A stretch of 64,000 bases of DNA from Acaryochloris marina MBIC11017. Lineage in GTDB: Bacteria > Cyanobacteriota > Cyanobacteriia > Thermosynechococcales > Thermosynechococcaceae. Positions 708 through 43,404 of the stretch are shown piece after piece (position 1 is the stretch's first letter; each line of letters begins with the position of its first letter). A program made the position numbers and the translations under genes. The stretch lies in assembly GCF_000018105.1 (NCBI RefSeq), contig NC_009925.1:3790521-3854520 (forward strand). The letters run 5' to 3'. The notes beneath the pieces are model-generated. The model had not been told where the DNA came from. It saw only the letters and a list, made by a program, of their open reading frames with translations, and made no database searches.

Positions 708-827
708 AGGACTGGCTTTGGGGAGAGAATGCGCTAATATCCGTATCACCCTTCTAATCCGAGACATTCCCAAATAGAGCGGATACAGTAGGAATAAGGG
801 TTTTGCAGCGTATTGATATAGGTTGGA

Positions 828-2469: not shown

Positions 2470-5400
2470 CTAACCCACTAACTCCGGGGTCTTCTGGTCA
2501 ATCAATCCTGCTAGGGTATCGAGTAACTCCTGCTCGTTAAAGGGCTTGGAGAAATAAGCCGACGCACCCAAATTCATGGCCACCTTGCGGTGTTTTTCGT
2601 GACTGCGAGAGGTCAGCATCACAATCGGCAAGTCTTCAAACTGAAGTTGGCCTTTGACTTCTTCCAGTACGCCATAGCCATCCAAGCGAGGCATTTCAAT
2701 ATCACAAACCACTGCCTGTACAGCTAAGCCGCTTTCCAGTTTGTCCACGGCTTCTTGGCCATCCTTGGCCTGTTCAACCTGATAGCCCGCTTTTTCTAGG
2801 GTCAGGGCTAAGAAACGACGGACATTAACAGAGTCATCCACCACCAGGATGGTATTGTCTGAGCTGACGGAGGGCAGAGATTCGATGGGAGGCGTGATGT
2901 CGGTTTGTTGTCGTTCCAGGGACCATTTGAGAATGGACAAGGGGTCGAGGATGGGGACCACGCGACCGTCCCCTAAGACAGTAGAACTTACAAATCCGGG
3001 GGGCATGGGTAAGGGGCTGGCGATGTCGCGAATGGTTACTTCCTGTTCACCCCAGAACCGTTCAATTTCTAGGCCACCGATCTGGTCATCCTCCCCAACT
3101 ACGAGAATAGTGGGTTTGTTAATAACCGGAGTCCCGGACATTTCGGAGAATCGGCGGGTTTGATTAAAGGCCCAATGCTGAGCCAAGTTGATGATGGGAA
3201 TGGAGCGATCTTGCCAGGTCAACGTGTGAGACGCTTCGATCCTTTGAATTTGGTCTGATTGCAATTGCAAAAGTTCGCAAATGCTTTCACTCGGCACCGC
3301 AAAGATGAATCCTGAATGCTCGAGCAGCATGACGCGCAAAATTGAGAGGGTATAGGGAACTGAAATGGTGAAGGTGGTGCCTACACTCTGTTCAGTATGG
3401 ACCTGAATTTCACCTCGGATGTCGCGAAGATTGTTGCGCACAACATCCATGCCGACGCCGCGTCCAGAGATTTCAGTCACTTGGTCCGCTGTACTAAAGC
3501 CCGGTTCAAAAATACAGTCTAATAAATCGGCTTCAGAGAGTTGAGAGACTTCCCACTCCGGAATGCCCATGGCCTGCAAACGATCACGGACCTTATCAAG
3601 GCGAATCCCTGCACCATCATCGCTCAGGGTAATGACTGTTTGTGCCCCTCGATTACGGGCTTGAATCGTAATCGTGCCTTTTGGCGCTTTGCCAATGGAA
3701 GTCCGGCGTTCCTGGCTGCCAATCCCATGATCAAAGGCATTACGAAGTAGATGATTAAGGGCATCTCCTAGGGGGTCCAGTACTGCTCGGTCAATCAGGG
3801 TGGCGTCCCCTTCCATCAACAGGTTGACCGGCTTATTAAACTGAACGCTCAAGTCTCGAATCATCCGGGGAAACCGTTTGACGATTTCTCGGAAAGGCAC
3901 CATCTGGGTGCGGGTGACATTCGTCTGCAATGAGCGGGTGGTTTGGTTAATATCGCGGACCGCCTGACCCATATCCTGTAGGGTCAGTTCAATATCGGAA
4001 CCCACCTCTTGTAACTGAACAATCGTTTCGATTTGGTCTTGGGCAATCAGGTGCAAGTCCGTATACTGGTCCATTTCTAGGGCATCAAATTGCCCGGATC
4101 TGGGCTCAGCCAGTTGTTCGGGTTGAGCGGGAGCGGCTTCTTCGGCAGGGACGATGCCTTCCATAGAGGCGCGGTCGTACCATTGCTGAAGTTGTGTATT
4201 GGAGGCTTCTAACTGACGAATCCGCTGTCGAATCAGTTGGGTGTAGGCTTGCAACTGCTCAAAACGCAAATTGACCGTATTCCGATCTAGAATCAACTTC
4301 CCAAACAGGGTATTAAATTGCTCCAGTTGTTCCACGGGAACCCGCACCGTTTTACCGCTGAGGGGCTTCACGGGAGCAGCAGAAGGCTGGGCTGCCGTGG
4401 TTTGTTCCAAAATTTGAGCCGCACTCTCCAGGGTTAAGGGGAGATCAGCAACTTCTTCTTTGATTGTTGAGTCTGCCGTAGATTCAACCAGATCGGAAGT
4501 CACTTCAAAGGCCTGCTGTAGATCCGCTAGCTCCACCGAATCCTGCAGATTGGCGAGGGCATCTGCGTTTAACAAGTCTTCTGGCGCAAAGTCATCAGTA
4601 GCGATTTCGGCAGGAAATTCCAGCGCTGGCTCGGGCAACTCGACTGATAAGGCATCGGCTAAGTTGGCGATTGCTGGATCATCTAGAGCAATGTTCTCGA
4701 AATTGACCGCTTCTGGTGCTTCAGGACCAGGTAGATTCATGGCTAAATCATCCGCTAGATCAGCGACAGCCGAATCCTCAAGGGCCACATTCTCCAGATT
4801 GACCGCTTCTGGTGCTTCAGGACTAGGCAGATCCGTGGCTAAAGCATCCGCTAGATCAGCGACAGCCGGATCATCAAGGGTAATCTCTTCTAGCGCTTCG
4901 GCGTTAGGCAGATCGGTGGCTAGGGCATCTGCTAAGTGGGCAACAGCCGGATCATTAAAATCAAGGTCTTCTATGGGGTCCGCTTCTATCGATTCAGGAT
5001 TAGGTAGATCCGTTCCTAAAGCACCTGCGAGATCGGCGACAGGGGCATCCTCTAGGTTAATCTCTCCTGGCAACTCAATGGTACCAAAGTCAGCTTGCAG
5101 AGCTGATAGGTCGACGGAGCCAAGGGCAGTTTCAAAGTCGGCTTCGGGGCTGGAGGCCATCGTTGGCGTAAAGTCCAGCAGTTCATGGGGGAGCTTCTCG
5201 AAACTGCGGCGCAGGACCAGCGCATGGGACCGTCGCCAGGTTTTGAGGGCGGCCATTGAGAGTTCAGGAATCTGCTCCGGCACGACCTGGGTCGCCAGTT
5301 CCTGGATTGATTGGCAGAGCTGAATAAAAGAGTCTAAATTGGCCATATGGCCGAAGGCCACCAATTCTTCGGCGGTCATCGCGAGTTCAGCCGCTAGTTG

Positions 5401-5937
5401 AGGGGCTGGCAAGGTGCCAAAATAGCCTTCAATGCGATCGAGAACAGCTTCCACCCCATCCTCAAACATAAGTAACGCTGGATCGATTTCCTCTTCGCCA
5501 CCACTGAGAAGTGCATTTTCGTCTGCATCTGTTACCTCGCCCAAATGGGTCTGCAGTTGGTCGAAGACGGGGGTGATATGGGCAGCCATCCAGTCAGCAT
5601 CAATGTCAGCCCCTTGCTGATAGCGATCGCCTACTTGTCGTAAGCAGTCTAAGCCCTGCAACAGGAGGGTTTCTACCTCTGTTGCGATGATTTTGGAGGC
5701 ATGGTGTACCCGCAGAATCTTGAAAAAATCTTCCAGACGGTGGGCCACTTTACTCAGATCCATCAGCCCCATCATCGCCGCCCCCCCTTTGACAGAGTGG
5801 GAGGCTCTGAGCGCTTCATCGAGTTGTTCGGGGTCTGCTGCGTTGGTGGCTAGACCCAGCAAAACGCGTTCAATCTTTTCGTAGCAGTCTTCCGCTTCTT
5901 CGAGAAATTTGAACTGGACTTGTTGTTCTTTATCCAT
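2470..5937 (-). CDS. CheA-like hybrid histidine kinase with the domain order Hpt, acidic repeat linker, HATPase, CheW-like, C-terminal receiver. It matches the PilL/HmpE type of the type IV pilus chemosensory system
   Basis: The Hpt motif is HSVKGGAAMMGL. The HATPase boxes are LRNAFDHGIG, DDGAGI and GRGVGMDVV. A CheW-like region sits after the kinase core. The C-terminal REC domain is VVDDSVNVRRF...DIEMPRLDGY...KPF. The gene is last in a co-directional chemotaxis-like operon. Confidence 0.9.
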   Translation of the reverse strand: MDKEQQVQFKFLEEAEDCYEKIERVLLGLATNAADPEQLDEALRASHSVKGGAAMMGLMDLSKVAHRLEDFFKILRVHHASKIIATEVETLLLQGLDCLRQVGDRYQQGADIDADWMAAHITPVFDQLQTHLGEVTDADENALLSGGEEEIDPALLMFEDGVEAVLDRIEGYFGTLPAPQLAAELAMTAEELVAFGHMANLDSFIQLCQSIQELATQVVPEQIPELSMAALKTWRRSHALVLRRSFEKLPHELLDFTPTMASSPEADFETALGSVDLSALQADFGTIELPGEINLEDAPVADLAGALGTDLPNPESIEADPIEDLDFNDPAVAHLADALATDLPNAEALEEITLDDPAVADLADALATDLPSPEAPEAVNLENVALEDSAVADLADDLAMNLPGPEAPEAVNFENIALDDPAIANLADALSVELPEPALEFPAEIATDDFAPEDLLNADALANLQDSVELADLQQAFEVTSDLVESTADSTIKEEVADLPLTLESAAQILEQTTAAQPSAAPVKPLSGKTVRVPVEQLEQFNTLFGKLILDRNTVNLRFEQLQAYTQLIRQRIRQLEASNTQLQQWYDRASMEGIVPAEEAAPAQPEQLAEPRSGQFDALEMDQYTDLHLIAQDQIETIVQLQEVGSDIELTLQDMGQAVRDINQTTRSLQTNVTRTQMVPFREIVKRFPRMIRDLSVQFNKPVNLLMEGDATLIDRAVLDPLGDALNHLLRNAFDHGIGSQERRTSIGKAPKGTITIQARNRGAQTVITLSDDGAGIRLDKVRDRLQAMGIPEWEVSQLSEADLLDCIFEPGFSTADQVTEISGRGVGMDVVRNNLRDIRGEIQVHTEQSVGTTFTISVPYTLSILRVMLLEHSGFIFAVPSESICELLQLQSDQIQRIEASHTLTWQDRSIPIINLAQHWAFNQTRRFSEMSGTPVINKPTILVVGEDDQIGGLEIERFWGEQEVTIRDIASPLPMPPGFVSSTVLGDGRVVPILDPLSILKWSLERQQTDITPPIESLPSVSSDNTILVVDDSVNVRRFLALTLEKAGYQVEQAKDGQEAVDKLESGLAVQAVVCDIEMPRLDGYGVLEEVKGQLQFEDLPIVMLTSRSHEKHRKVAMNLGASAYFSKPFNEQELLDTLAGLIDQKTPELVG
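4560..5070 (-). repeat. Intragenic tandem repeats in the CheA Hpt-kinase linker, about six copies encoding acidic D-P-A-V-A-D-L-A-D-A-L-A-T-D-L-P-x-P-E-A-P-E-A units
   Basis: Near-identical blocks of roughly 100 nt recur in the DNA (gaccgcttctggtgcttcagga...gctagatcagcgacagccg). The protein shows the matching repeated motifs PAVADLADALATDLP. Confidence 0.8.
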
Positions 5938-6026
5938 AGTGCTGAGGCGATGATAGGTCGCTAATGTCGATGAGGGGCATCCTGTATCTCAATCCAGAGG
6001 GCTCGAAAGGCAAGCGCTCGAAGGTT

Positions 6027-8435
6027 TTAGCTTGCTTCTTCGACCTTAAACTGGGCCACGGCTGCTTCCATCTGCTCGGCCACGGCTGCTGTTTCCTGCA
6101 TGGATTCGGCCACCTGGGTGGAGGATTCCGCTCGTTGTTCAGATTGGGCTGCCATTTGCTGCATAAGGGTCGTCACCACTTTGGAGGTTTCGGTTTGGGA
6201 TACGGTGGCGTCAGAAATCGAACGCATCAGGTCGTTAATTTCTTGCGAACGGTTGAGAACAACCGCCAGCTTGTCTTTGGTCGTTTCCACTAGGCGGGTA
6301 CTATCGACCACCTGGTTGGTGCCGATTTCCATGGCTTCGGTTACTTCTTTGGTCTCGGCTTGAATACCAGCCACAATTTGGGCAATTTCCTTGGTCGCAG
6401 CAGCGGACTGTTCCGCCAGAGCACCCACCTGTTCCGCAACCACGGTGAAACCTTGCCCCTGCTCACCGGCCCGGCTGGCCTCTACACTGGCGTTAATGGC
6501 TAGGAGATTCGTTTTCAGCGCGATTTCTTCAATCAAAGACACCACCTGGGAAATCTTTTGGGAGGATTCACCCAAACGCTTAATTTTCTTAGCCGTTTCA
6601 CCCACCGTATTTCGCAGACTGAGAATACTATCCACCGTTTGATCCATGGCATCACTTCCTTCTTGAACCGTGGTGTAGGCTTGGTCAGAAATCAGCGCGG
6701 CTTTACCAGCGTTGCTGGCTACATCCTCAATGGAGGTGGACATTTGCTCAATGGAGTCCAGCGTGGAACGGGTTTGCTCGGTTTCTTGGATAGCTTGTTC
6801 AGCAAGGGTCTGCATTTCCCCTTTGCTCTCGTTCAGAGACGAACTCACCTTGACCGAAGAGTCTTTTACTTGGGCCGCAATCTCATTGAGGTTATCGATA
6901 ATGGCGTTGAACAAGTCCGCAACGGTACTCATTTCCATCGAGTTTAAGCTGGCGCGGACGGTTAAGTCGCCATCCACCGCTTCTCCCACTTCATCGAGGA
7001 GCTGGTAAATTTCCATTTCCAGTTTGTCGCGGGATTCTCTTTGCTCTTCGGCGGTTTGTTCCGTTTTGTCGAGTAGAGTTTTCACCTCAGACACCATGGT
7101 GTTAAAGGTGCGAGCTAGGGCTCGGGTTTCGCGGGTGCCGTCCACTTCCGCTTCGACATCCAAGTTACCGCTAGCGGCTTCGTCAGCAGTATCCGTCAGT
7201 TTGGCGAGGGGATTGGAAACGGTCCCGGCTAGCCAGTAAATCACGGCGGTAATAAAACCTGCCAGTAATAGACCCATACCCCCGAACAGAATCAACTGCT
7301 GTTGCGCCAAAGCGGCTTCTTCTGCCGTTTCCACGGAGGCAATCGCCACCAGTTTTGTCCCTGGAATAATGGACACGTTAAAGAATCGATCCTTGTAGGT
7401 AAAGGAGGCAATCACTAACTTGAATTCTCCTGCTACCTGTTCTTTGGTCTTCAGGTCAGTAATGCCGGGAATATTTCGAATCTGAGCCTTTGTGGCATTC
7501 AAATCACCTGCTTCTGCTTCCAGATAATCTTCGATGAGTTTGGCAGCTGCTACCACATCTGCCCCACCTGTCACCTCTTGATTTTGGAGATCACTTCCTT
7601 TAGCCGTAATGGTATCTACTACTGCGTTGGTCTCTAGTTTGGGATTCACAATTTGGACAATTTCTGACTCGGTTAGGTTGGGAGACACCAGGGTACTGAT
7701 GGCTTCGTCTAACGCTTTCGTTGGTATTGCAACTTTCGTCACCCCAATGAAATTACCCGCATCATCTTTAACTTGTTTGGAAAGGGCAATGATGTTTTGA
7801 TTGGCTGATTCATCGAACTCCGGTTCTTCGATAAATTGCCCTTTCTCTTTGGCCATTTGCCACCAGCGTTCATCATTCTGGACAAAGTCGGAGGTGGGAT
7901 TGCTATAGCCCACGTTAAATCCATATTTGTCCGTGACGAACACCTCAGCCAACTGACCATTTTTGACGACGCGTTGTAGGTACTCATTCAATTTAGCGTT
8001 GGGTTTTAGCAGTTTGGTACTCGCAAACTGCTGTTCCACTACTTCAATAGGCTTCTGGGGCAAGCCTTGGGCCTCAGCTTGTTGGGCGCCAGCTTGGACC
8101 GCTTCTAGTAATAATGGGTCACTATCAATAATGTCTGGAAATTTCAGGGCGTCTTTTAAGAAAATGGCGCTGGCTTCACTAGACAGCAAGCTCACCTCTT
8201 CCAACTGCAACAGGGCTTTTTCCTTGAGCTGGGCTTCTGTTTGCACGTAACCGATCACACTGGCAATGGCCACCGGGGCCAAGGCTACGGGCAAAACGGT
8301 GGTTAATAGTTTTTGGCGCAGGGTGGCAGCCGGTTTGGTGTAGGGGGTGGCTGGGTCAACGTTGAGATCTTGGGCCGCCATGTTGCCGTTGCTGGCCGTG
8401 GCGTCTGCTAGGGTCATGTCCTGTTGGGTCGTCAT
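6027..8435 (-). CDS. Methyl-accepting chemotaxis protein (PilJ/HmpD-like), with N-terminal TM/periplasmic region, HAMP domain and MCP signalling domain
   Basis: The C-terminal half contains the conserved MCP signalling hairpin (GEQGQGFTVVAEQVGALAEQSAAATKEI) and HAMP-like heptads. There is an internal TM segment (LILFGGMGLLLAGFITAVIYWL). The gene sits between the cheW and cheA genes. Confidence 0.9.
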   Translation of the reverse strand: MTTQQDMTLADATASNGNMAAQDLNVDPATPYTKPAATLRQKLLTTVLPVALAPVAIASVIGYVQTEAQLKEKALLQLEEVSLLSSEASAIFLKDALKFPDIIDSDPLLLEAVQAGAQQAEAQGLPQKPIEVVEQQFASTKLLKPNAKLNEYLQRVVKNGQLAEVFVTDKYGFNVGYSNPTSDFVQNDERWWQMAKEKGQFIEEPEFDESANQNIIALSKQVKDDAGNFIGVTKVAIPTKALDEAISTLVSPNLTESEIVQIVNPKLETNAVVDTITAKGSDLQNQEVTGGADVVAAAKLIEDYLEAEAGDLNATKAQIRNIPGITDLKTKEQVAGEFKLVIASFTYKDRFFNVSIIPGTKLVAIASVETAEEAALAQQQLILFGGMGLLLAGFITAVIYWLAGTVSNPLAKLTDTADEAASGNLDVEAEVDGTRETRALARTFNTMVSEVKTLLDKTEQTAEEQRESRDKLEMEIYQLLDEVGEAVDGDLTVRASLNSMEMSTVADLFNAIIDNLNEIAAQVKDSSVKVSSSLNESKGEMQTLAEQAIQETEQTRSTLDSIEQMSTSIEDVASNAGKAALISDQAYTTVQEGSDAMDQTVDSILSLRNTVGETAKKIKRLGESSQKISQVVSLIEEIALKTNLLAINASVEASRAGEQGQGFTVVAEQVGALAEQSAAATKEIAQIVAGIQAETKEVTEAMEIGTNQVVDSTRLVETTKDKLAVVLNRSQEINDLMRSISDATVSQTETSKVVTTLMQQMAAQSEQRAESSTQVAESMQETAAVAEQMEAAVAQFKVEEAS

Positions 8436-8507
8436 GGTCTTGTGGTGAAAGTAACTAAGGAGTAAAGAAAGCTGCCAACTGGACGTTGACGGGTATGCTG
8501 TTGCAGG

Positions 8508-9071
8508 TTAGGTCGGATATAAAGCCGGTGCTTTGGCCAGGAATGGCGGATAGAAAAGATACAGGGTTTGCTCGTCCTGTTGGCAAGTGGCTGTAACGTA
8601 GGGACTTAGGTTTGCCGGACAGGCAGCAATTTCGGTTTGCAGTTGCTCTTCTTGTAAGCGGGTGACCCCTTGAATTTGGGGAACGGCCAGCCCCAAAAGC
8701 GCCTCTCCATTTCCCGAGCGTTGATAGTCAGAAGGAGGTACCCGGACAACAATCACGCGGTATCGGCGCTGGCTACCGATGATATCGGGGTATCCCAACA
8801 ACTGGGGCAGATTGACCACACAGAAGACCTGATCTCGGGAATTCATTAACCCCAGCACCGATCGGGCCATATTAGGGATGAGGGTAATCTGCTCAGCCTC
8901 TACAATTAAGGACTCTTGGACATGCTCCATTGAGAGCAAAGCACCGATACCCTCTGCCACCATAAACCGCAGATAGGGTTGTCCGGTGAGCTGGGTGGAC
9001 TGAAATAACTGGGGTAGCAGCTCTTGCAGTCGTGATAGTGAAGTTGTAGAGGCAGTCGGTTGTTGGGTCAT
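8508..9071 (-). CDS. CheW-like coupling protein (PilI/HmpC-like)
   Basis: It is about 190 aa with a single CheW-type domain. It lies directly between the CheY and MCP genes of the operon. Confidence 0.8.
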   Translation of the reverse strand: MTQQPTASTTSLSRLQELLPQLFQSTQLTGQPYLRFMVAEGIGALLSMEHVQESLIVEAEQITLIPNMARSVLGLMNSRDQVFCVVNLPQLLGYPDIIGSQRRYRVIVVRVPPSDYQRSGNGEALLGLAVPQIQGVTRLQEEQLQTEIAACPANLSPYVTATCQQDEQTLYLFYPPFLAKAPALYPT

Positions 9072-9545
9072 TTATTTCATTGCCGCTCTCAGGGCACTCA
9101 CGAGTTCTTGCTTGGTGCAGGGTTTTGTGACATAGGCTTCTACCCCTTGCTTGGCAGCCCACATGCGATCGACATCTCGATTCTTAGCGGTACAGGCCAC
9201 CACGGGAATATCGGCGGTGTCGGGGTTCTTGCGTAGCTTCCGGGCTAGGTCTAACCCGCCCATTTCCGGCATCATCCAATCGGTGACAATGGCGTCGGGC
9301 TTGTTCTGACTAACTTTTTCTAGTGCCTCTGTGCCATTGGTGGCCGTGACGATGGTGTAGCCTTCTTCGGTCAGGTATTGACAGAGTAAGTCCAGTTCGG
9401 ATTGGAGGTCATCGACGACTAAGATTTTGCTGCTCATGGTGTGTCCTTGGGTGGCTAAGTTATGAAACGTAAGTAGAGTTGAGGAACTGGAATGAGAGTG
9501 GTGTGGGGTAGACGGGCTACCCAATGTGAGTCTATTGGAACTCAC
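9072..9545 (-). CDS. CheY-like single-domain response regulator (PilH/HmpB-like)
   Basis: The receiver domain motifs are ILVVDD, TATNGTEALEK, MPEMGGLDL and the KPCTK lysine. Confidence 0.85.
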   Translation of the reverse strand: MSSNRLTLGSPSTPHHSHSSSSTLLTFHNLATQGHTMSSKILVVDDLQSELDLLCQYLTEEGYTIVTATNGTEALEKVSQNKPDAIVTDWMMPEMGGLDLARKLRKNPDTADIPVVACTAKNRDVDRMWAAKQGVEAYVTKPCTKQELVSALRAAMK

Positions 9546-9553
9546 CTATACTC

Positions 9554-10780
9554 CTAAGCTGGATTGAGTTGAGTCAGGTATTTCTCCACCACATCTGTGA
9601 GACCTTGTTGGGTAAAGGGTTTGGTGAAGTAATCGGTGGCACCGGCCAATTTGGCACGGGCTTTATCAATCAGCCCCGTATTTCCCGTCACCATGATGAT
9701 CGGGGTTTCGTCAAAGACGGCACTACTTCTGAGCAGACTGCACAAACGGTAACCGTTTATTTTGGGCATTGTGATATCGAGCAAAATCAGATCGGGCTTG
9801 ATCCGAAAGATGACTGAAGAGGCTTGAATCGGGTCATCGACCGTTGTAACTTCATATCGAGTATTCCCTAAAAACCGCTCAATCTCACTCAAAATCGTTG
9901 GACTATCGTCAATGCAGACAATCTTAAAGACGCGATTAGCGGCCTGGGCTGTCTGAGCAGCTTGGGTTACGGTTGGCGTGTTAGGAACACCTGGAACCCG
10001 AGGTAGTTGGTCAAAAGGCGGCTGTGGATTGCGTAAAAAAATGACCTGCTGTTCTACATAGGGACCAAAGAGCTGAGCAATATGCAGCTCGTCTTGTTTG
10101 AGCAGGACTGACAGCTGGCGAATACTGAATCCTCGACTCATCAACTGGGCGAGTTTCGTCAGTGCTTCTGGGGATAGTTTGCCCCCCTGAACGGGTTTGC
10201 TGATATGGCGAAAATCTAATAGGTAAGGACGCTGATAAGGTGACCAAATTTCTTTGCTACAACTTTGCCAACCCTTCATGCGTTGCTTGAGGAAGCGGAC
10301 CGTATCGACTACGTCCACTAAAGGCGTTTGCCCCAATACCGTCGTCACCCATTCCGGCGAAGGCGTACCATTTTCCCAAACTGCTCTGGCTTGACGCAGC
10401 CATAAAAAGGTTTCTAATGCATCTTGAGTAATATCTTCAATCAGCTGTCTGGATTGGATCTCATCTAGCATATGGCGTTCCTGCAGCCAGAGCATTGATC
10501 GCTGAATGAGTCCTTGGGCCTTGGTGACGGTTGTGACCCCAGCCTCCGTTGCGGGTGGCATTTCTTTAAGGACGTTATATGCCTGGTCTAACCCTTGTCG
10601 GCATAGGAAATAGCTGAGTTGGGCCAGGGTTTGAATGGAGCAGTCTACATACTGTAGGTCTCCCTCATTTAAATAGATGTGCCAAACGGCTTTACCATTG
10701 CTCGCTTTGAGTACGCCTGTCGCACTAGAGCTTGATAACTCAGTTAACAGCTGATACGGATCAAACTTAGAGGGTTCCAT
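9554..10780 (-). CDS. PatA-type response regulator (PilG/HmpA-like), with an N-terminal PATAN domain and a C-terminal CheY receiver
   Basis: The C-terminal REC is KIVCIDDSPTILSEIERFL...LLDITMPKINGY...IIMVTGNTGLIDKARAKLAGATDYFTKPF. The N-terminal ~270 aa resemble a PATAN/DUF4388 region. It is the first gene of the operon. Confidence 0.8.
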   Translation of the reverse strand: MEPSKFDPYQLLTELSSSSATGVLKASNGKAVWHIYLNEGDLQYVDCSIQTLAQLSYFLCRQGLDQAYNVLKEMPPATEAGVTTVTKAQGLIQRSMLWLQERHMLDEIQSRQLIEDITQDALETFLWLRQARAVWENGTPSPEWVTTVLGQTPLVDVVDTVRFLKQRMKGWQSCSKEIWSPYQRPYLLDFRHISKPVQGGKLSPEALTKLAQLMSRGFSIRQLSVLLKQDELHIAQLFGPYVEQQVIFLRNPQPPFDQLPRVPGVPNTPTVTQAAQTAQAANRVFKIVCIDDSPTILSEIERFLGNTRYEVTTVDDPIQASSVIFRIKPDLILLDITMPKINGYRLCSLLRSSAVFDETPIIMVTGNTGLIDKARAKLAGATDYFTKPFTQQGLTDVVEKYLTQLNPA

Positions 10781-12496: not shown

Positions 12497-15400
12497 ATGC
12501 CTGAATTGTCTAGTATTCTTGATCTTCGTTTGGTTCTAGAAAGCGTTGGTGCGCTCCTATTGGGGACAGCTACCGTCGATACCCTGCGTCAACGGCAGTG
12601 GCAGCAGCAACTCACATCTGCCTCTGAAGAGCAACAACGGTTGCTAACGGCGGATCAAGCTCGTCTGCAGACCGAGCAACAAACCCTTCAAACCGATAAC
12701 GAGACGTTAACCGCGGCCCTTGCCAAGGCTAAACAGGTGGTGGAGGCTCAAGAACAGAGCGTTGAAGAGTTAAAGCAGCAGGTCAGCCAGCTACAACAGC
12801 AGCAACGGGCTTGGGCAGACGAGAAACAAGCCCAAGATCAGCAGCAGAAGACCTTAGAAACTGAACTAGATACTCAAAAAGCGCAATGCCAACAGCTCCA
12901 GGCTGAATTGGATGAGCGGGCTGCTACGACTACGGAGTTAGACAATCTGGCTGCTGCGAAAACGCAAGCGGAAGTGGATCTGCGCCAGGCTCAATCCAAA
13001 ATGCGGGGTTTGCAACTCCAAGTGGATACCCTAACCCAAGCACAACAGCCATTGCAGGCCAAGGTAACGGCAGCAGAGCAGACAGCCGCTGTTGCTACCC
13101 AAGCTAAGACCCAACTGGAACAGCAGCTTGCCCAGTTGACTCAGACGCAACAGCAAGACCAATCCCAGGTGACGCAAGCCCAGGCAACGATTCAAAGTCT
13201 TGAACAACAAGTGGCCAGCCTGACCGCGACACAAAAAACTTTAGAAAATCAGCTGCAACAGCAGTCTCAACGGGATCGTCAGCGTCAGAACTTAGCGACG
13301 GAAGTGGCTATACTCCAAGATCAAATTGCGACCCTCACGACCCAAAACCAGAGCCTAGAGGATGATCGAGTCGCTGTTCAGCAAGAGAAAGATAGTCTAA
13401 CCCAGCGATTAGAGACCTTAACGGCCACCCATGACCAGCTAGCCACCACCCAGGCTGAAACGGTTCAGCAGCTGGCTGCTACGACTCAAACTCATCTGCA
13501 GTTGGAGCAAGCCCATGCTCAGCTAACAGCAGAGTTAGAAGGGCTCCATCATGCGCAGACGGATCTCTCTACCCTTCGCCAAGAAAAACAAACCCTGGAG
13601 TCTCTGGTTACTGAGCAAAAACAGGAAATTGACGATTTAACGGGACGACTGGCCACGGCCAAAGATCTGCAACGGCAGTTGGCAGAGGACTATGAAACAG
13701 CTCAGACCTCCTTGTCTGCTTTAGAGACCCAAGACACAGACTTCAACACAGAGCTGGCGGCGGATCTCCAAGATGCCCATGCTCAAATCAAGACCCTTCA
13801 GCAAAATCTGGAGACCCTGACCCAACAAAATCAAGATCTGCGTAACCAGATCGCTGCTGCTCCACCTGAGCAGTCCCAAGCCTTACAGGAACTCGAACAA
13901 GCCCTGCAAGCTGCCCAATCCAGAAATCAACAGCAACAACAACAGCTGCAGGACCTAGCCCAAGAGAAAGAGTCCCTTGCTACTTCCCTGCAAACCGCTC
14001 AATCCAACTCCACTGAGCTACAGCAGCAGATTGCATCCTTGACTCAGCAACACCAGGAATTAGAGACCAGTTTGGAGCAAACCCAAACGGCAGATTCCAG
14101 TCTGATTACGGAACTCACGACTAATCAGCAGCAGCTCACCACTGAACTAACTGACGCTCAAGAACTGATTACCAACCTGCGCCAGCAAATCTCAGATTTG
14201 GAAACCGCTCAAGAGGCTCAACCCACAAGCACAGATATTGAGGCCCTGACTCAAACCAATCAAACCCTATCGGCAGAGCTGTCAGACTCACAAACCGCCT
14301 TGGCGACCCTGCGTCAGCAACTTCAGACTCTGGAGCAGCAACAGCAACGCTTAGAGACGGAGCAAGGTGCAGTCGCCAACGACCAGTCCAAAACCATTGC
14401 TGCTTTGGAAGCCCAACTGCAAACCCTGCAACAAGAACGGGAGACTCTCAATCAGCAGGTGGCGGAATATCAAGGCCATCTTCCATCTTTGCAAGAGCAG
14501 ATTACGGATTTAGAACAACAGCGACAAACTCTGGAGTCCTCATTACAAGGTGCTGAAGCGCAAGCGCAGGACCTGGAACAGCAGCTCAATACCCTGAATC
14601 AAGGGCAAACCCAAACTCAGCAAGATTTACAGGCTCAGCAGCAACAGGTCATTACCCTAGAACAACAGGTACAGGCCCTGGAAGCGGAGAAGACTCAATT
14701 AGCATCTGCTCTCAAAGTCGCTGAAGAAGCCCCTATCCCTTTGCAAGAAGCCTTACAGTCCGCTCAAACGGAACAGACCCAGTTGGAGCAACGGCTGACA
14801 GCACTCACCCAGCAGAATCAGGACTTACAAACTGCGATCAATCAAGCCTCGGATACTTCTGCGTTGGAGACAGAGCTGGCGGCAGTGAAGGCGGAGAAGC
14901 AGCAATTAACTGTAACCTTACAAGCTGCTGAAGCCGCCTCGTTGCCTTTGCAAACAACCTTGCAAACTGCACAAGCTGAACAGGTTCGTTTAGAGCAACA
15001 GCTCGCCGCACTAACAGAGCAGAATCAGAGCTTGCAAGTTTCTCTAGAACAGGCCTCTGATACCTCAGCTTTGGAGGCAGAGTTGGCGGCAGCGAAGGCA
15101 GAATGCGATCGCATCACCCAATCCCAACAGACAGCAGAAACCACCATCCAAACCCTGACCGCCCAACTGCAAGAGCTAGAGTCCCTACCTGAGCAGCTCC
15201 AATCCCTGACCCAAGCGAAAGCTCAGCTCGAAGCCGATCTCCAGCAGGCCACCACCATAACGGCAGAAGTGGACCAGTTAACGCAGGCTCAGCAAGATTT
15301 ACAGGCGGCGCTATCGCAGGCTGAGGAAGAGAAACTAGGGTTGCGATCACAACTCCAAACCTTAGAACAGCAGGTCGTGGATCTGCAATCGGCGACGTCA

Positions 15401-16060
15401 TCTGTGGAACTAGAACAGCAGCTTCAAGATCTGACGGCAGATCGCGATCAGCTGCAGCACAACTACGACACTGCGACGGCTAAAATCACGACCCTACAAC
15501 AGCAACTCCACACCTTAGAACAGCAGGCTGCTGAGCTGCCTGACTTAGAGGATGCCTTACCTGAACAGATGATGGCAGCAATGAAAGAGGCCGACCAACA
15601 GATCACGACCCTAGAAACCCAAGTCAAAGCCATGAAAAAAGACAAGGCAGAGTTGGAAAAAGCGATGAAAATGGCCAGGGACGTCGTCTCGCATTTTGAG
15701 CAACAGGTTGAAAACCTCACCCAAGAAAAGCAACAGCTTGAACAACAATTCCAGATGTCTACCTCAGATGATCCTTTGGCCACGGTCCCAGCAGTTGTCC
15801 CTGAATCGCAACCTGGTCTCCCCCTCTCGGGACAAAGTTTTGTTATCACTGGCAAACTGGCTCAGCTCAGTTATGAACAAGTGAAAACAATCATTCAGGA
15901 AGCAGGTGGTACCATCAATACCCATCCCAGTTCTAAAACCAGCTATGTTGTCGTCGGGAAAGATCCAGGCAACAAGCTGAAAAAGGCTGAGAAATATAGT
16001 ATCCCGCAATTATCAGAGCAGCAGTTAATGGAGCTATTGGGGTTAGATCTCTCTGCTTGA
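12497..16060 (+). CDS. Very long coiled-coil protein (~1150 aa of Q/L/E/T-rich heptads) with a C-terminal BRCT domain. It may correspond to HmpF, a coiled-coil motility protein of filamentous cyanobacteria
   Basis: The composition is continuously low-complexity and alpha-helical (QQLQ..., LEQQ...). The last ~80 aa are SGQSFVITGKL...AGGTINTHPSSKTSYVVVGKDPGNKLKKAEKYSIPQLSEQQLMELLG, which align closely with the LigA-type BRCT domain. Confidence 0.85.
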   Translation: MPELSSILDLRLVLESVGALLLGTATVDTLRQRQWQQQLTSASEEQQRLLTADQARLQTEQQTLQTDNETLTAALAKAKQVVEAQEQSVEELKQQVSQLQQQQRAWADEKQAQDQQQKTLETELDTQKAQCQQLQAELDERAATTTELDNLAAAKTQAEVDLRQAQSKMRGLQLQVDTLTQAQQPLQAKVTAAEQTAAVATQAKTQLEQQLAQLTQTQQQDQSQVTQAQATIQSLEQQVASLTATQKTLENQLQQQSQRDRQRQNLATEVAILQDQIATLTTQNQSLEDDRVAVQQEKDSLTQRLETLTATHDQLATTQAETVQQLAATTQTHLQLEQAHAQLTAELEGLHHAQTDLSTLRQEKQTLESLVTEQKQEIDDLTGRLATAKDLQRQLAEDYETAQTSLSALETQDTDFNTELAADLQDAHAQIKTLQQNLETLTQQNQDLRNQIAAAPPEQSQALQELEQALQAAQSRNQQQQQQLQDLAQEKESLATSLQTAQSNSTELQQQIASLTQQHQELETSLEQTQTADSSLITELTTNQQQLTTELTDAQELITNLRQQISDLETAQEAQPTSTDIEALTQTNQTLSAELSDSQTALATLRQQLQTLEQQQQRLETEQGAVANDQSKTIAALEAQLQTLQQERETLNQQVAEYQGHLPSLQEQITDLEQQRQTLESSLQGAEAQAQDLEQQLNTLNQGQTQTQQDLQAQQQQVITLEQQVQALEAEKTQLASALKVAEEAPIPLQEALQSAQTEQTQLEQRLTALTQQNQDLQTAINQASDTSALETELAAVKAEKQQLTVTLQAAEAASLPLQTTLQTAQAEQVRLEQQLAALTEQNQSLQVSLEQASDTSALEAELAAAKAECDRITQSQQTAETTIQTLTAQLQELESLPEQLQSLTQAKAQLEADLQQATTITAEVDQLTQAQQDLQAALSQAEEEKLGLRSQLQTLEQQVVDLQSATSSVELEQQLQDLTADRDQLQHNYDTATAKITTLQQQLHTLEQQAAELPDLEDALPEQMMAAMKEADQQITTLETQVKAMKKDKAELEKAMKMARDVVSHFEQQVENLTQEKQQLEQQFQMSTSDDPLATVPAVVPESQPGLPLSGQSFVITGKLAQLSYEQVKTIIQEAGGTINTHPSSKTSYVVVGKDPGNKLKKAEKYSIPQLSEQQLMELLGLDLSA

Positions 16061-32806: not shown

Positions 32807-33250
32807 ATGGAAGCTGTAATCTTGGTGGGTATTCAGGCTACGGGTAAATCGACGTTTTATCACCACCAGTTTGGACGCACCCATGTGCGGATCAACCTGG
32901 ATATGTTGAAAACACGACATCGTGAGCAACAGTTTTTGGATACCTGCCTAGTCACCCGCCAACGGTTTGTGGTGGATAACACGAATCCTACCCCTGCTGA
33001 GCGACAGCGGTATATCCAACCCGCTCAACAACAGGGTTTTTCGATTACGGGGTATTACTTTGAATCGAAGTTGGCAGCGGCTTTGATTCGGAATTGCGAT
33101 CGCACGCCTGACCAACGCATTCCAGACAAAGGGATTCGCGGGACAGCCTCTCGCCTGATCTTGCCTACCTATGATGAGGGGTTTGACCAGCTTTTTTCCG
33201 TTCGTCTTCTTCCTCATCAACAATTTTCGGTTGAGGATTGGCAATTATGA
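32807..33250 (+). CDS. Small P-loop kinase resembling the kinase domain of T4 polynucleotide kinase (AAA_33/PNK-like 5'-OH polynucleotide kinase), with no phosphatase domain
   Basis: The Walker A is ILVGIQATGKSTFYHHQF (compare T4 Pnk ILTIGCPGSGKSTWAREF). The Walker B-like motif is VVDNTN (T4: IIDDTN). Lid arginines are present. The gene is 147 aa and its stop overlaps the next gene's start. Confidence 0.65.
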   Translation: MEAVILVGIQATGKSTFYHHQFGRTHVRINLDMLKTRHREQQFLDTCLVTRQRFVVDNTNPTPAERQRYIQPAQQQGFSITGYYFESKLAAALIRNCDRTPDQRIPDKGIRGTASRLILPTYDEGFDQLFSVRLLPHQQFSVEDWQL

Positions 33251-34008
33251 AATTTACTGAACTCGATCAAACCTTGAGGATCTATGAAACCGCTTATGAC
33301 CTCTGCGTTCTGCCTGGGCTGCAGATGGTCGCTCGGTTAGATGGACGGAATTTTACTCGGTTAACGAAAGAAACCCTCGATTTAGATGCTCCCTTTGATG
33401 CCACCTTTCGAGATGCCATGGTGGCAACGGTTCAGCATTTGATGACCTGTGGATTTCGAGTCCTTTATGGCTATACCCAAAGCGATGAAATCTCTTTACT
33501 GCTGCACCCAGACGAGCAGACCTTTGCTCGTAAGCTACGTAAACTCAACTCCGTGCTTGCAGCGGAAGCTAGTGCGAAAATGTCGTTGATCTTAGGCTGT
33601 ATAGCAGTTTTCGACTGTCGAATCTCCCAACTGCCAACGGTGGATTTAGTGGTCGACTACTTCCGATGGCGACAAGAAGATGCCCATCGCAATGCCCTCA
33701 ATGCCCATTGCTACTGGATGTTGCGTAAAGGGGGTGATTCAGCGGGCACTGCAACCCAGAAATTAGAGGGATTATCCGTTGGCGATAAAAATGAATTGCT
33801 GTTTCAACTGGGGCAGATGAACTTTAACGACTTACCCCCCTGGCAAAAACGAGGAGTGGGCTGTCTTTGGCAGTCGTATCCAACGGCAGGTGTTAACCCT
33901 GTTTCAGGAGAAGTATCTCAAGGGACGCGAACGAAAATCGGCGTTGAGCTTAACTTGCCGATGAAAGAGCACTACAGGGAATTTATCCTTAAGCGAATGA
34001 CGCTCTAG
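33247..34008 (+). CDS. Thg1-like protein (TLP), from the tRNA-His guanylyltransferase superfamily of 3'-5' nucleotidyltransferases
   Basis: The N-terminus MKFTELDQTLRIYETAYDLCVLPGLQMVARLDGRNFTRLTKE...YGYTQSDEISLL matches the conserved Thg1/TLP palm-domain motifs (KFEY-like, V-R-[IL]-DGR-x-F, Y-x-QSDE). The ATG overlaps the upstream kinase stop as ATGA. Confidence 0.75.
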   Translation: MKFTELDQTLRIYETAYDLCVLPGLQMVARLDGRNFTRLTKETLDLDAPFDATFRDAMVATVQHLMTCGFRVLYGYTQSDEISLLLHPDEQTFARKLRKLNSVLAAEASAKMSLILGCIAVFDCRISQLPTVDLVVDYFRWRQEDAHRNALNAHCYWMLRKGGDSAGTATQKLEGLSVGDKNELLFQLGQMNFNDLPPWQKRGVGCLWQSYPTAGVNPVSGEVSQGTRTKIGVELNLPMKEHYREFILKRMTL

Positions 34009-39967: not shown

Positions 39968-40957
39968 ATGGGGAATCCTGTTTATGCTGAACGGAGAATC
40001 TGGGCCATGCTTTCCTTAGCCTTAGTGTTGATCGTGGGTTTAGGCAGTGTAGGGCTGTATTTAACAGCCTACGTCTATCCAGAAATTCACCGCAAAACCG
40101 ATGTTTGGTGGAGCGGTACGGGACTTTTTTATGCCTTAATCCTGTTGATCTATCGCCGTCCTGTCGGCTTGTTGTTGGGCCATACAGCGAGTGTTTTCCT
40201 GCTGGTTTGGCTGAGTTATCAAGCCTTGCAGCGTCGCTGGGCTATGGTAGAGGCGAATCCAGCACAACCAGATCCAGGAACTTGGGGGGCTGATGCCCGA
40301 AAGATATCCGATCAGGCCATTGCCAAAATTACTAGCGTGAATTGGCAAGGATTATGGGAAAAGATGGGACAGCAGGCGGATGATGGAACGTCTGACAAGT
40401 CAATTTTGCCTCCGGCCATCAAACAGCGCCTAGACCTATCAGGCTTAGGTGAAAAACTAAAAGGCATGATGGGTGGCAAGCAGACTCCTGAGGTTGAGGC
40501 CCCCGCAGAGACTGTTCAGCCTACTGCTGTCAGTACGCCTGTAGATGCACCTGCCACAGAACCTCCTGCTGAACAAACCACTGAACCAATATCAGACACC
40601 ACAGTACAACCAGCGCCCATCGCTGAAACAGCTCCCCCGATTGAAGAACCTACTGCTCAGGTGTCCTCGAGTGAAGAACCAGTCGTTGACGCAACACCTG
40701 TGATTGAAGCACCCACTACAGTGCAAATGCCAGCTACTCCTAGTTCTGATGTCTCTACGAACAGTTCAGCCCAAGCAGCCGGAGAGACTGAACCTGCGGT
40801 GCAGACAGAGGTTGTGGCAGAATCTTCAAAAGCTGTAGAGCCCAATACCGATAAAGCTGACTTAACGGCTGAGTTAGATCAAGTCATTTCTGACCTCTCT
40901 CCAGATGGACAAGACACGACTCCGAATTTGCCTCAACCTCCTGATCCACTGGGATAA
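39968..40957 (+). CDS. Ycf66-like membrane protein with a long Pro/Thr/Glu/Ala-rich low-complexity C-terminal tail
   Basis: The N-terminus LALVLIVGLGSVGLYLTAYVYPEIHRKTDVWWSGTGLFYALILLIY resembles the conserved Ycf66 N-terminal domain. The C-terminal 180 aa are low complexity. The true start is probably the internal Met near 39998. Confidence 0.5.
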   Translation: MGNPVYAERRIWAMLSLALVLIVGLGSVGLYLTAYVYPEIHRKTDVWWSGTGLFYALILLIYRRPVGLLLGHTASVFLLVWLSYQALQRRWAMVEANPAQPDPGTWGADARKISDQAIAKITSVNWQGLWEKMGQQADDGTSDKSILPPAIKQRLDLSGLGEKLKGMMGGKQTPEVEAPAETVQPTAVSTPVDAPATEPPAEQTTEPISDTTVQPAPIAETAPPIEEPTAQVSSSEEPVVDATPVIEAPTTVQMPATPSSDVSTNSSAQAAGETEPAVQTEVVAESSKAVEPNTDKADLTAELDQVISDLSPDGQDTTPNLPQPPDPLG

Positions 40958-41050
40958 TGTGGGCAATTTATCCAACTCCCAAGTTGTAGTGCCATTACTA
41001 AGCAGTGATTGAGTTGTAGATTTTGCTGATTAAGGTCAGCGTTAAAGCTG

Positions 41051-41302
41051 ATGATATTTCCTGAAGACCCTAGCCGCGATGAGTTAATCAGAATTGTTCA
41101 ACTGATTATCGAGTCCAAGGGGACAGAGACAGAATTGGATCAGATGCTAGATTGGGTTGAAACCTATAGTCCTCACCCGAATGTGTCTGATCTGATCTTC
41201 TACCCCGAGGATAGTGACAGTCTTACAGCCGAGAATATCGTCGACAAGATATTCCAATATAGACCTATCATCACTTCTTCCTTCTCCACAGAAGCACTGT
41301 AA
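41051..41302 (+). CDS. Colicin/pyocin DNase-type immunity protein homologue (Im7/Im9 family)
   Basis: The segment DELIRIVQLIIESKGTETELDQMLDWVETYSPHPNVSDLIFYPEDSDSLTAENIVDKIFQYR aligns with Im9 (EAEFLQLVTTI...[28 protein letters not shown]...SPSGIVNTVKQWR). This includes the HP-x-x-SDLI[FY]YP core that contacts the DNase. The protein is 83 aa and acidic. Confidence 0.7.
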   Translation: MIFPEDPSRDELIRIVQLIIESKGTETELDQMLDWVETYSPHPNVSDLIFYPEDSDSLTAENIVDKIFQYRPIITSSFSTEAL

Positions 41303-41598
41303 TTCTGTGACAGTATGAAATGAAGTAAAACAAGTGTGGCTTCAACATATTTTTGTTTGAGAATGCCGATAGCTTCAATAGCAATGGAGAAATCTATACT
41401 GTAATGGCCCTAGTCTTCAAGCCCAGAGATTTATGAGGAAGTGTAAGGGATCGATTGGGGGAGAATACCTGGGAATCTCTGTTGATCCATAAGCTGAATA
41501 ATGCCATGATCGCTCAGCGCCAGAAGATATCGATGGCCCAGAAATTATAAGGTGCACGTTGTGATGTGCACGGTTAAATCTCAATAGATAACCCTGAA

Positions 41599-43404
41599 AT
41601 GAAAAAGTTCTTAAAGCAATTTCTCTATATACTAGCAGACCAGAAAATTATGCTATTGGTTTTGCTGGCTGCTGTTTTGGGAAATGCTGTTATAGAAACC
41701 TTAGGTATTGGCCTGATTGGACCTTTTATTGCCTTTGCAAGCGATCCAGAGCTAGTAGAAAAAACAATTGTAATTGGCCAAGTCTATGACTGGTTGAACT
41801 TTGAATCTAGGGAAAGGTTTATTGCATTTTTGGCTTTATTTATTATTATTATTTTTTATGTAAAGTCTTTTCTGAATTTTGTTATTCGTCGCTATATTTT
41901 TAACTTTGTATATCAGTACCAAGGTAAGCTGCGGATTCGGTTGTTAAGTGCGTATATGCAAATGCCATATACATTTCACTTAAAAAATAATTCCGCATTT
42001 ATGATTCAGAGCATTATGAATCATACAGTTAGCTTTTGTAATGGCATCTTACTAGAGCTGCTGAATTCATTTGTTAGCCTAACGATTATTACCTTTCTGA
42101 GTATATTGCTGATTTATACGAGCCCTATCGCAACCATTGTGATTGGACTGATTCTATTTGTTGTTTTTGCGATTATTCTGCGCTTAAAAAATACGCTTTC
42201 TCGTTGGGGCAAAACGATTGCCCAGTCTCAAGCTGAGATGATTCGAGTCGTTAACCATAGTCTAGGGTCTGTAAAAGAGACCAAAGTCATTGGGTGTGAG
42301 TCATTCTTCTTAGATCAACTAGATACCCAAGCTCAGTTATATTCCACTTCTCTCAGCGATTTCATGTCCTTCAATCAAATCCCGCGCATTACGATTGAAG
42401 CCATGATTATGACCTTTATTCTAGGTTTTATTTCTGTTTCGATCTTAACGAATCAGGACTTCCAAGGGCTGATTTCGACATTGGGTATCTTTGCGGTTGT
42501 ATCGATACGATTGATGCCTTTGGCAACACAACTCAGCAAAGGTTTGAGCGTTTTAAGAAGCTCAACATTTGTCTTGGAAAAACTGTATCACGACCTAAAA
42601 GAGCTAGAAAATCATCAGGCCCTCATAGCGCCTTCTGCAGATGTTGCGGCTCAGTTCAAACCAGCGAATGGTAGTTTGGAACCTTCTCATTTAGACTTTG
42701 AACAGGAGATTTTATTAGATAAAATCTCTTTCCAGTATGAAGGTGCTAAAAACCCGTCTCTCAATCAGATTCAACTTCGTATTAAGAAAGGAGAATCCAT
42801 CGCTCTGATTGGTAAATCAGGTGCAGGAAAAACGACCCTAGTAGATGTGCTCCTAGGCCTTCTGACGCCGACAGGGGGAGATATAAAAGTTGATGATCAA
42901 TCGGTTTACCAAGATTTGAGGGCTTGGCAGAATTTATTGGGTTATATTCCCCAATCTATCTTTTTGATTGATGACACCTTAGAGCGCAATATTGCCCTTG
43001 GGGTGCCCGATCACCTGATTGATGAGACTCGACTTAACCGTGCCATTGAATTAGCACAGCTATCTGAGCTCGTGAAGGAGCTACCCGATGGTGTGAATAC
43101 GAATCTAGGAGAGCGTGGAGCCAATTTGTCTGGTGGTCAACGACAACGGGTTGGGATTGCCAGAGCTTTGTATCATGAGCGGGAAATTTTGGTGTTGGAT
43201 GAAGCAACCTCTGCCCTTGATAATGAAACAGAGGCGCTGGTGTCAGAGGCGATTCGCTCTCTGAGTGACTCGAAGACGATGATTATCATTGCCCACCGTT
43301 TAACCACGGTGGAGCATTGTAATTGCATTCATCTGATGAAGAATGGTCAGATTATTCAATCTGGAACCTATGAAGAAGTGGTTTTGGCAGCTAATGAAGA
43401 ATAA
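41599..43404 (+). CDS. ABC exporter, fused transmembrane and ATP-binding domains (MsbA / type-I-secretion / peptide-exporter class) with no N-terminal peptidase domain
   Basis: There are six predicted TM helices in the first ~300 aa. The Walker A is GKSGAGKTTL. The ABC signature is LSGGQRQRVGIARAL. The Walker B is ILVLDEATSALD. The H-loop is IIIAHRL. The 5' half is conspicuously AT-rich. Confidence 0.9.
   Translation: MKKFLKQFLYILADQKIMLLVLLAAVLGNAVIETLGIGLIGPFIAFASDPELVEKTIVIGQVYDWLNFESRERFIAFLALFIIIIFYVKSFLNFVIRRYIFNFVYQYQGKLRIRLLSAYMQMPYTFHLKNNSAFMIQSIMNHTVSFCNGILLELLNSFVSLTIITFLSILLIYTSPIATIVIGLILFVVFAIILRLKNTLSRWGKTIAQSQAEMIRVVNHSLGSVKETKVIGCESFFLDQLDTQAQLYSTSLSDFMSFNQIPRITIEAMIMTFILGFISVSILTNQDFQGLISTLGIFAVVSIRLMPLATQLSKGLSVLRSSTFVLEKLYHDLKELENHQALIAPSADVAAQFKPANGSLEPSHLDFEQEILLDKISFQYEGAKNPSLNQIQLRIKKGESIALIGKSGAGKTTLVDVLLGLLTPTGGDIKVDDQSVYQDLRAWQNLLGYIPQSIFLIDDTLERNIALGVPDHLIDETRLNRAIELAQLSELVKELPDGVNTNLGERGANLSGGQRQRVGIARALYHEREILVLDEATSALDNETEALVSEAIRSLSDSKTMIIIAHRLTTVEHCNCIHLMKNGQIIQSGTYEEVVLAANEE

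Follow-up and report, generated by a model that had tools for sequence, protein, structure and literature searches.

An intact orphan gene of the colicin/pyocin DNase-immunity family downstream of ycf66 in Acaryochloris marina, and its decay in sister lineages

Why does the cyanobacterium Acaryochloris marina MBIC11017 carry a gene for a colicin/pyocin-type DNase immunity (Im) protein that has no DNase toxin gene beside it? The gene lies in a stretch of 64,000 nucleotides (NC_009925.1, positions 3,790,521 to 3,854,520), hereafter the window, from whose first letter all window coordinates are counted. The initial annotation regarded the Im gene, together with an AT-rich ABC exporter gene downstream of it, as a relic or minimal form of a bacteriocin or polymorphic-toxin locus that might have been acquired horizontally. 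The features on which our account draws are the following, with L numbers standing for related loci or assemblies and P numbers for relatives of the Im protein:

39968-40957, + strand: gene for a ycf66-like membrane protein, the conserved upstream neighbour of the Im gene and not a toxin gene (PF07444, Ycf66_N, E = 5e-18)
41051-41302, + strand: intact orphan gene of the Im family (colicin/pyocin DNase immunity), recognised from PF01320, PDB matches, AF2/Foldseek and dN/dS
41126-41167, + strand: predicted helix II of the Im protein, codons 26-39, ETELDQMLDWVETY, from the AF2 model and the Im9 alignment
41174-41206, + strand: helix-III core HPNVSDLIFYP, codons 42-52, from alignment to Im9/Im7 and the orthologues
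41195-41197, + strand: codon 49 (ATC), within TCTGATCTGATCTTC, site of a frameshifting 1-nt insertion in L085 and L089/L090 and, by implication, in P0005
41303-41598, + strand: intergenic region of the ABC gene, not of the Im gene, from conservation of its first ~90 nt in L084
41599-43404, + strand: TMD-NBD ABC exporter gene, PglK/MsbA/HepA-like and a neighbour only (Pfam ABC_membrane and ABC_tran, NCBIfam)

The Im ORF runs from ATG to TAA and encodes 83 amino acids, among them 8 D, 9 E, 2 K and 3 R residues (17 D/E vs. 5 K/R; pI 4.05). A Pfam scan matched it to PF01320 (Colicin_Pyocin) with 32.8 bits (E = 7.2e-8) against a gathering cut-off of 21.2, with residues 8-71 covering profile positions 9-73 of 82. 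A phmmer search against PDB sequences matched 27 Im-family chains, the best of which were Im7/Im9 variants and Im8 (E = 3e-7 to 1.5e-6); residues 7-72 lie opposite PDB chain residues 10-76, and the HP..SDLI[FY]YP core is in register with that of Im9 and Im7. Both searches bear out the original assignment of this acidic protein to the Im7/Im9 family. PF01320 is also the precomputed family of all five relatives (P0001-P0005), the shortened P0005 included. The family assignment of the Acaryochloris gene is already public, the protein being named "bacteriocin immunity protein" at NCBI and "Colicin immunity protein / pyocin immunity protein" in UniRef, and an identical protein with the same neighbours is found in AP026075.1 and in many Logan assemblies. 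A literature search found no paper treating this Acaryochloris gene.

Compared with Im2, Im7, Im8, Im9 and the pyocin S2 immunity protein (PF01320), the A. marina protein belongs to the same length class (83 vs. 85-87 amino acids) and is likewise acidic. It shares with Im2, Im7, Im8 and Im9 the four-helix topology, the short helix III and the core in register, but it is only ~30-33% identical to them, and its gene is chromosomal and located between housekeeping genes of a cyanobacterial host. Unlike colicin loci, the A. marina locus has neither a DNase toxin gene upstream of the Im gene nor a lysis gene.

We used an AF2 model, built from four sequences and of moderate confidence (pLDDT 65.6), to examine the predicted fold. 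Helices were placed at residues 7-20, 26-39, 44-50 and 60-69, an arrangement that matches the Im topology, the third helix being short. The ten top Foldseek matches of the model in PDB were all Im2, Im9, Im7 or Im8 structures (probability 0.87-0.99, TM-score 0.47-0.56), yet their E-values were at least 0.14. The product of the Im ORF is accordingly described here as predicted to adopt the distorted four-helix Im fold with its short third helix.

The predicted DNase-binding surface is well preserved in sequence. We take the helix at residues 26-39 to be the counterpart of helix II of Im9, the acidic, specificity-determining helix of that protein; E26 and E37 lie opposite Im9 E30 and E41 in the PDB alignment, and the helix II stretch is nearly invariant in the four intact orthologues. 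In helix III, D47, F50 and Y51 align to Im9 D51, Y54 and Y55, which make up the conserved DNase-binding hot spot of Im9, and the core HPNVSDLIFYP, these three residues included, is invariant in all four intact orthologues. The hot-spot residue Y54 of Im9 is replaced by F50 in the A. marina protein, a conservative swap with which affinity may differ. A solved complex of Im9 Y54F with the E9 DNase (2gzf) is among the PDB/Foldseek matches.

The neighbourhood of the Im gene comprises lipA, the ycf66-like gene that lipA precedes, and the ABC exporter, SLH and methyltransferase genes. The Im gene is not directly downstream of an HNH (Col-Pyo DNase) toxin gene; the gene upstream is ycf66, as the initial annotation had it. 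The E9 DNase domain found no match in the 64-kb window by tblastn (best E = 3.1). This query was validated on the related loci described below, where it picked 11 upstream ORFs (E = 1e-24 to 1e-35), with Pfam calling PF21431 in all eight of the picks tested. An HMM built from E9 and 11 toxins of related loci had no match in the six frames of the window and of the A. marina loci, nor in the ycf66-like gene itself. A Pfam scan of 36 window ORFs returned chemotaxis, kinase, envelope and photosystem genes and no HNH or Col-Pyo DNase domain, and the precomputed Pfam families of called genes within 10 kb on either side of the Im gene contain no HNH/DNase family. A second Im copy was not found in the 64-kb window, and there is no integrase or transposase among the window ORFs scanned or the called genes. 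The Im gene is therefore locally orphan, with no colicin-type DNase in the window.

In this respect it resembles the orphan immunity genes of E. coli bacteriocin plasmids and T6SS loci, which also have no cognate toxin alongside and are maintained by selection in some lineages. It differs from acquired interbacterial defence loci and T6SS orphan arrays in being a single gene on no plasmid or mobile island, with no integrase nearby, and in being old and syntenic rather than recently mobile.

Is the lack of an adjacent toxin peculiar to Acaryochloris? An HMM search of 1.84 billion representative proteins gave 431 clusters at E ≤ 1e-3, and the Acaryochloris Im proteins form one isolated cluster (182.8 bits, vs. 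73.6 for the next match). The nearest relatives have in common the signature VPHPxVSDLIFYP...TAEEIVD..YRPI. A genome scan with the Im alignment returned 66 loci, and 65 related loci form the set counted here. Relatives with 31-54% identity occur in Myxococcota, Bacillota, Actinomycetota, Planctomycetota and others, and besides an Acaryochloris MAG the only cyanobacterial match is a partial one in a Synechococcales MAG (L068). The scan did not return A. marina itself and so falls short of being exhaustive.

A DNase domain ends the gene directly upstream of the Im gene in 12 of the 65 related loci, and the two genes overlap or are separated by no more than 32 nt in all 11 pairs measured. Pfam called PF21431 in each of nine upstream toxins tested, the carriers being RHS/YD-repeat, LXG (T7SS) and VgrG-like proteins. 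The Im genes that follow such toxins in Bacillota, Actinomycetota and other phyla are the closest relatives outside Acaryochloris (40-53% identity) and share the signature given above, but theirs are toxin-adjacent and that of A. marina is not. No such DNase was found within 6 kb in the other 53 loci, and the same holds for 49 of the 60 loci in which 1 kb or more of sequence was available upstream. The orphan state is thus common in this branch of the family, and toxin adjacency is a feature of operons and not of the protein family, since 53 of the 65 loci also lack it. For E. coli bacteriocins, too, there is ample documentation of orphan immunity genes, and they are read there as protection against the toxins of others (PMC12546727).

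Orthologues of the A. marina protein were found with 95, 84 and 73% identity (P0002, P0003 and P0004, respectively), and the order lipA-ycf66-Im is conserved among the orthologue loci, L011 and L012 included. Fifty positions are invariant in the four intact orthologues, the whole helix-III core among them. Over 75 codons, dN/dS was 0.28 in comparison with L011 (p = 0.011) and 0.15 in comparison with L012 (dS 1.1, p = 7e-7). The intact copies are under purifying selection, and the Im gene has been located downstream of ycf66 since before the sampled Acaryochloris lineages diverged.

The GC content at third codon positions of the Im gene (0.488) equals the window mean (0.482), so that its lowish overall GC reflects amino-acid composition, i.e. 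codon positions 1 and 2, and not foreign codons. This rules out a compositional case for horizontal transfer of the gene. The suggestion of a recent horizontal acquisition is not supported either by its synteny across lineages separated by dS >1; an ancient acquisition is plausible.

We followed ycf66 homologues into related assemblies (L085-L090) to survey the fate of the Im gene. L086, whose ycf66 is 71% identical, keeps the synteny lipA-ycf66-gap-ABC-SLH-methyltransferase, but in its Im gene the start codon is gone (ATG to ATC), stops interrupt the frame at three points and the core is eroded. The reading frame is shifted in L085 (ycf66 76% identical) by 1 nt inserted into codon 49, and L089 and L090 (ycf66 78% identical), two independent samples and assemblies that agree with each other, have an insertion at the same position together with substitutions in the core. 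The insertion reads GATCTGAATCTT in L085 (at ~6197) and GATCTGAGTCTT in L089/L090 (at ~4199), that is, GATCTGA[A/G]TCTT. P0005, a shortened product of 54 amino acids represented by five Logan contigs of an A. marina-like strain, ends in ...SDLILLPRG followed by a stop, which implies another insertion in codon 49. No Im-like sequence was found downstream of ycf66 in L087 and L088, whose ycf66 homologues are 59 and 49% identical, respectively. Logan assemblies may hold errors, but the lesions of L086 are multiple and the frameshift of L089/L090 is present in two independent samples.

Insertions in codon 49 are thus seen in a distant lineage (L085 and L089/L090) and implied for a close A. marina-like strain (P0005). 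This recurrence may be a coincidence, or a short direct repeat may make the site prone to indels.

The Im gene, then, was present early in the genus; some lines have kept it under selection, and others have lost it. Because it has been pseudogenised repeatedly, any benefit that it confers must be weak or conditional. The tolerance of its inactivation also disfavours a resident cognate toxin, at least in the sister lineages. The word 'relic' fits the gene in a loose sense, given the pseudogenes at the homologous site in these lineages.

We favour, with more confidence than doubt, the explanation that the A. marina gene is an intact, stand-alone orphan DNase-immunity gene of ancient origin that protects against the DNase toxins of neighbours. 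The protective role itself is probable. An Acaryochloris ancestor would have received the gene horizontally, either unaccompanied by a toxin or with one that was shed very early. Its product would bind the exosite of Col-Pyo-type HNH DNase domains (PF21431) as Im9 does, with contacts made through the helix-III core (D47, F50 and Y51) and the acidic helix II, and such binding would neutralise DNase domains that neighbours inject on RHS, LXG/T7SS or T6SS polymorphic toxins. Retention in some lineages and decay in others would follow if selection for protection depends on ecology.

This pattern suggests that, in its biofilm habitats, Acaryochloris may be under genuine, if uneven, selection from DNase polymorphic toxins. 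A more specific version, which we put forward tentatively and consider somewhat doubtful, is that a biofilm cyanobacterium keeps the Im gene against the RHS-, T6SS- and T7SS-delivered DNases of heterotrophs and that the mosaic of intact genes and pseudogenes tracks exposure to them. If this is true, the mosaic documents, in nature, how warfare between bacteria has affected cyanobacteria. The A. marina gene by itself matters little; public databases already contain the family, the orphan phenomenon and the protein name. Its modest value lies in illustrating an Im gene without a toxin that has become fixed in a housekeeping neighbourhood, with selection in some lineages and independent decay elsewhere.

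Might the gene instead be a functionless relic that is by chance still intact in A. marina and is heading for loss? The pseudogenes at the homologous site in L085, L086 and L089/L090, the shortened P0005 within the A. marina-like clade and the lack of an Im gene downstream of ycf66 in L087 and L088 are all as expected of such a relic. Nevertheless, a dN/dS of 0.15 between intact copies at dS ~1.1 and the invariance of the helix-III core, and of helix II for the most part, are at odds with loss of function, and an unconstrained ORF of 250 bp would not remain open and conserved over such divergence. We therefore regard chance survival as unlikely.

A further candidate role for the Im protein is that of cognate immunity protein to a DNase toxin whose gene lies in another part of the A. 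marina genome, on the chromosome or a plasmid. A. marina has been reported to carry polymorphic toxins (PMC3482391), and purifying selection on the Im gene would be expected under this explanation. However, the toxin is directly upstream in the 11 paired relatives measured, and the sister lineages tolerate an inactivation of the Im gene that would kill them if they expressed a resident cognate toxin. In addition, a word-indexed protein search, which is insensitive to distant paralogues, found no second Im paralogue. A tblastn search of a plasmid collection with the Im protein and a DNase domain had no Acaryochloris match among those listed; the collection does not include the two A. marina plasmid accessions looked up, so this result carries no weight for A. 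marina. A distant cognate toxin thus appears quite unlikely.

A third alternative, recruitment of the Im fold to an endogenous task such as restraining a host HNH nuclease or acting with Ycf66, gains some appeal from the stable site between housekeeping genes and from the conserved linkage with ycf66, which lies 93 bp upstream in the same orientation, the gap containing no strongly predicted promoter or terminator. Repeated pseudogenisation of the Im gene while ycf66 remains intact argues against an essential shared function, ycf66 homologues without an Im gene exist in L087 and L088, and no candidate endogenous partner has been identified. Co-option is improbable on these grounds, and redeployment of the fold against an endogenous HNH nuclease is likewise a less likely variant of the biofilm scenario given above.

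The remaining alternative concerns the downstream exporter, a protein of 601 amino acids in which Pfam recognises a single ABC_membrane and a single ABC_tran domain but no peptidase; a C39 peptidase domain was found neither by Pfam nor by NCBIfam. The best full-length NCBIfam matches were PglK (302.7 bits), MsbA (272.3) and HepA (252.4), all of them below the respective cut-offs. The protein resembles PglK/MsbA/HepA exporters in having one TMD and one NBD, a length of ~600 amino acids and full-length alignment to PglK and MsbA, but it scores far under the equivalog cut-offs of PglK (1000) and MsbA (602). Against TIGR01193 (peptide cleavage/export) it reached 164 bits, with a cut-off of 524 and over the NBD only, and its alignment to NHLM_micro_ABC1 begins at model position 179, the peptidase part being absent. 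Full-length homologues with 50-60% identity occur in Leptolyngbyaceae, Elainellaceae, Halomicronema, Oculatella, Symploca, Nostocaceae, Chroococcidiopsis and others, and on one Leptolyngbyaceae contig the homologue is located among glycosyltransferase genes and an MBOAT gene.

The exporter gene is indeed AT-rich, as had been pointed out: its GC content of 0.402 (0.366 in the TMD half) is the lowest of 48 window ORFs (mean 0.492, sd 0.030). Low GC is common to its homologues in L011, L083, L084 and Halomicronema (0.445, vs. 0.564 in the flanks of the latter), so that it characterises the lineage of this gene and does not mark recent transfer.

The exporter and Im genes are adjacent on one strand in A. 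marina and L011, and in L085 and L086 the exporter gene is likewise beside the Im remnant. In L083 and L084, however, the exporter gene is 85-90% identical and is preceded by quite different genes, with no Im gene, and L084 retains the ~90 nt that come after the Im stop codon in the window. In L012 the Im gene is followed by sequence unrelated to the exporter gene or its leader. The Im gene travels with ycf66 and not with the exporter.

The intergenic region 41303-41598 is 90% identical in L011, and because homology with L084, which has no Im gene, begins where the Im gene ends, this region belongs to the exporter gene. Blocks TGTGACAGTATGAAATGAAG and GCTGAATAATGCCATG (window 41306-41325 and 41493-41508) are conserved across five lineages, L084 included, the first with the invariant pattern TGTGACAGTATG.A.TGAAG that L084 also keeps. 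These two blocks probably serve the exporter gene as promoter or 5' leader. Rfam gave no match on 40900-41700, and promoter and terminator matches in a scan of 40800-41700 were no commoner than in shuffled sequence. An ORF of 55 amino acids at 41417-41584 (- strand) was not taken as a gene, since the region has indels in L085 and L086. The exporter is an independently inherited cyanobacterial one with its own upstream region.

That the Im gene and the low-GC exporter are a relic or minimal bacteriocin or polymorphic-toxin module acquired horizontally as a unit, as first proposed, is very improbable: although the two genes are adjacent on one strand in A. marina, L011, L085 and L086, are both below average in GC and include an exporter with bacteriocin-export models among its weaker NCBIfam matches, the exporter has no C39 domain, is best matched by PglK, MsbA and HepA and has homologues in many cyanobacterial families, exporter and Im gene occur without each other in L083/L084 and L012 (L084 even keeping the upstream block), the GC3 of the Im gene is that of the window, and a TMD-NBD exporter lies within 6 kb of the Im gene in just one of the 65 related loci (any ABC ATPase, 5 of 65). 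Colicin/pyocin DNases and RHS/LXG toxins, moreover, are not known to leave the cell through this type of ABC transporter. The case shows how a neighbouring low-GC ABC exporter can be misread as part of a bacteriocin module.

Exporter genes in the sister lineages have histories of their own. At the ycf66 site of L089/L090 only a 3' remnant of ~400 bp is left (4478-4881), with a stop codon and a frameshift, and L084, whose run accession is adjacent to that of the L089/L090-lineage sample, has an intact exporter gene in a different neighbourhood, which suggests that in the L089/L090 lineage the gene either moved or was duplicated before the original was lost. In L087, a TMD-NBD ABC gene for 599 amino acids (5910-7709, - strand) is convergent to ycf66 and 6 nt from its stop codon, with no Im gene, and a gene for a HemolysinCabind protein is located near it.

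Several other genes in the window are also of note. A protein of 1187 amino acids (12497-16060, + strand) is mostly coiled coil with a C-terminal BRCT domain, an architecture unusual for a cyanobacterial protein, and has weak matches to GAS, CENP-F and the crescentin rod. At 32807-34008 (+ strand), an AAA_33 kinase-like gene overlaps the start of a Thg1-like gene (tRNA-His guanylyltransferase family), and this pair is kept in all Acaryochloris loci that cover it. A chemotaxis-like cluster (2470-10780, - strand) encodes a hybrid CheA of 1155 amino acids (Hpt-HATPase-CheW-receiver), an MCP with Cache and HAMP domains, a CheW, a receiver protein and a DUF4388-receiver protein. Finally, two adjacent FGE-sulfatase-domain genes lie at 3-2447 (+ strand), the second with an N-terminal trypsin-like peptidase fusion.
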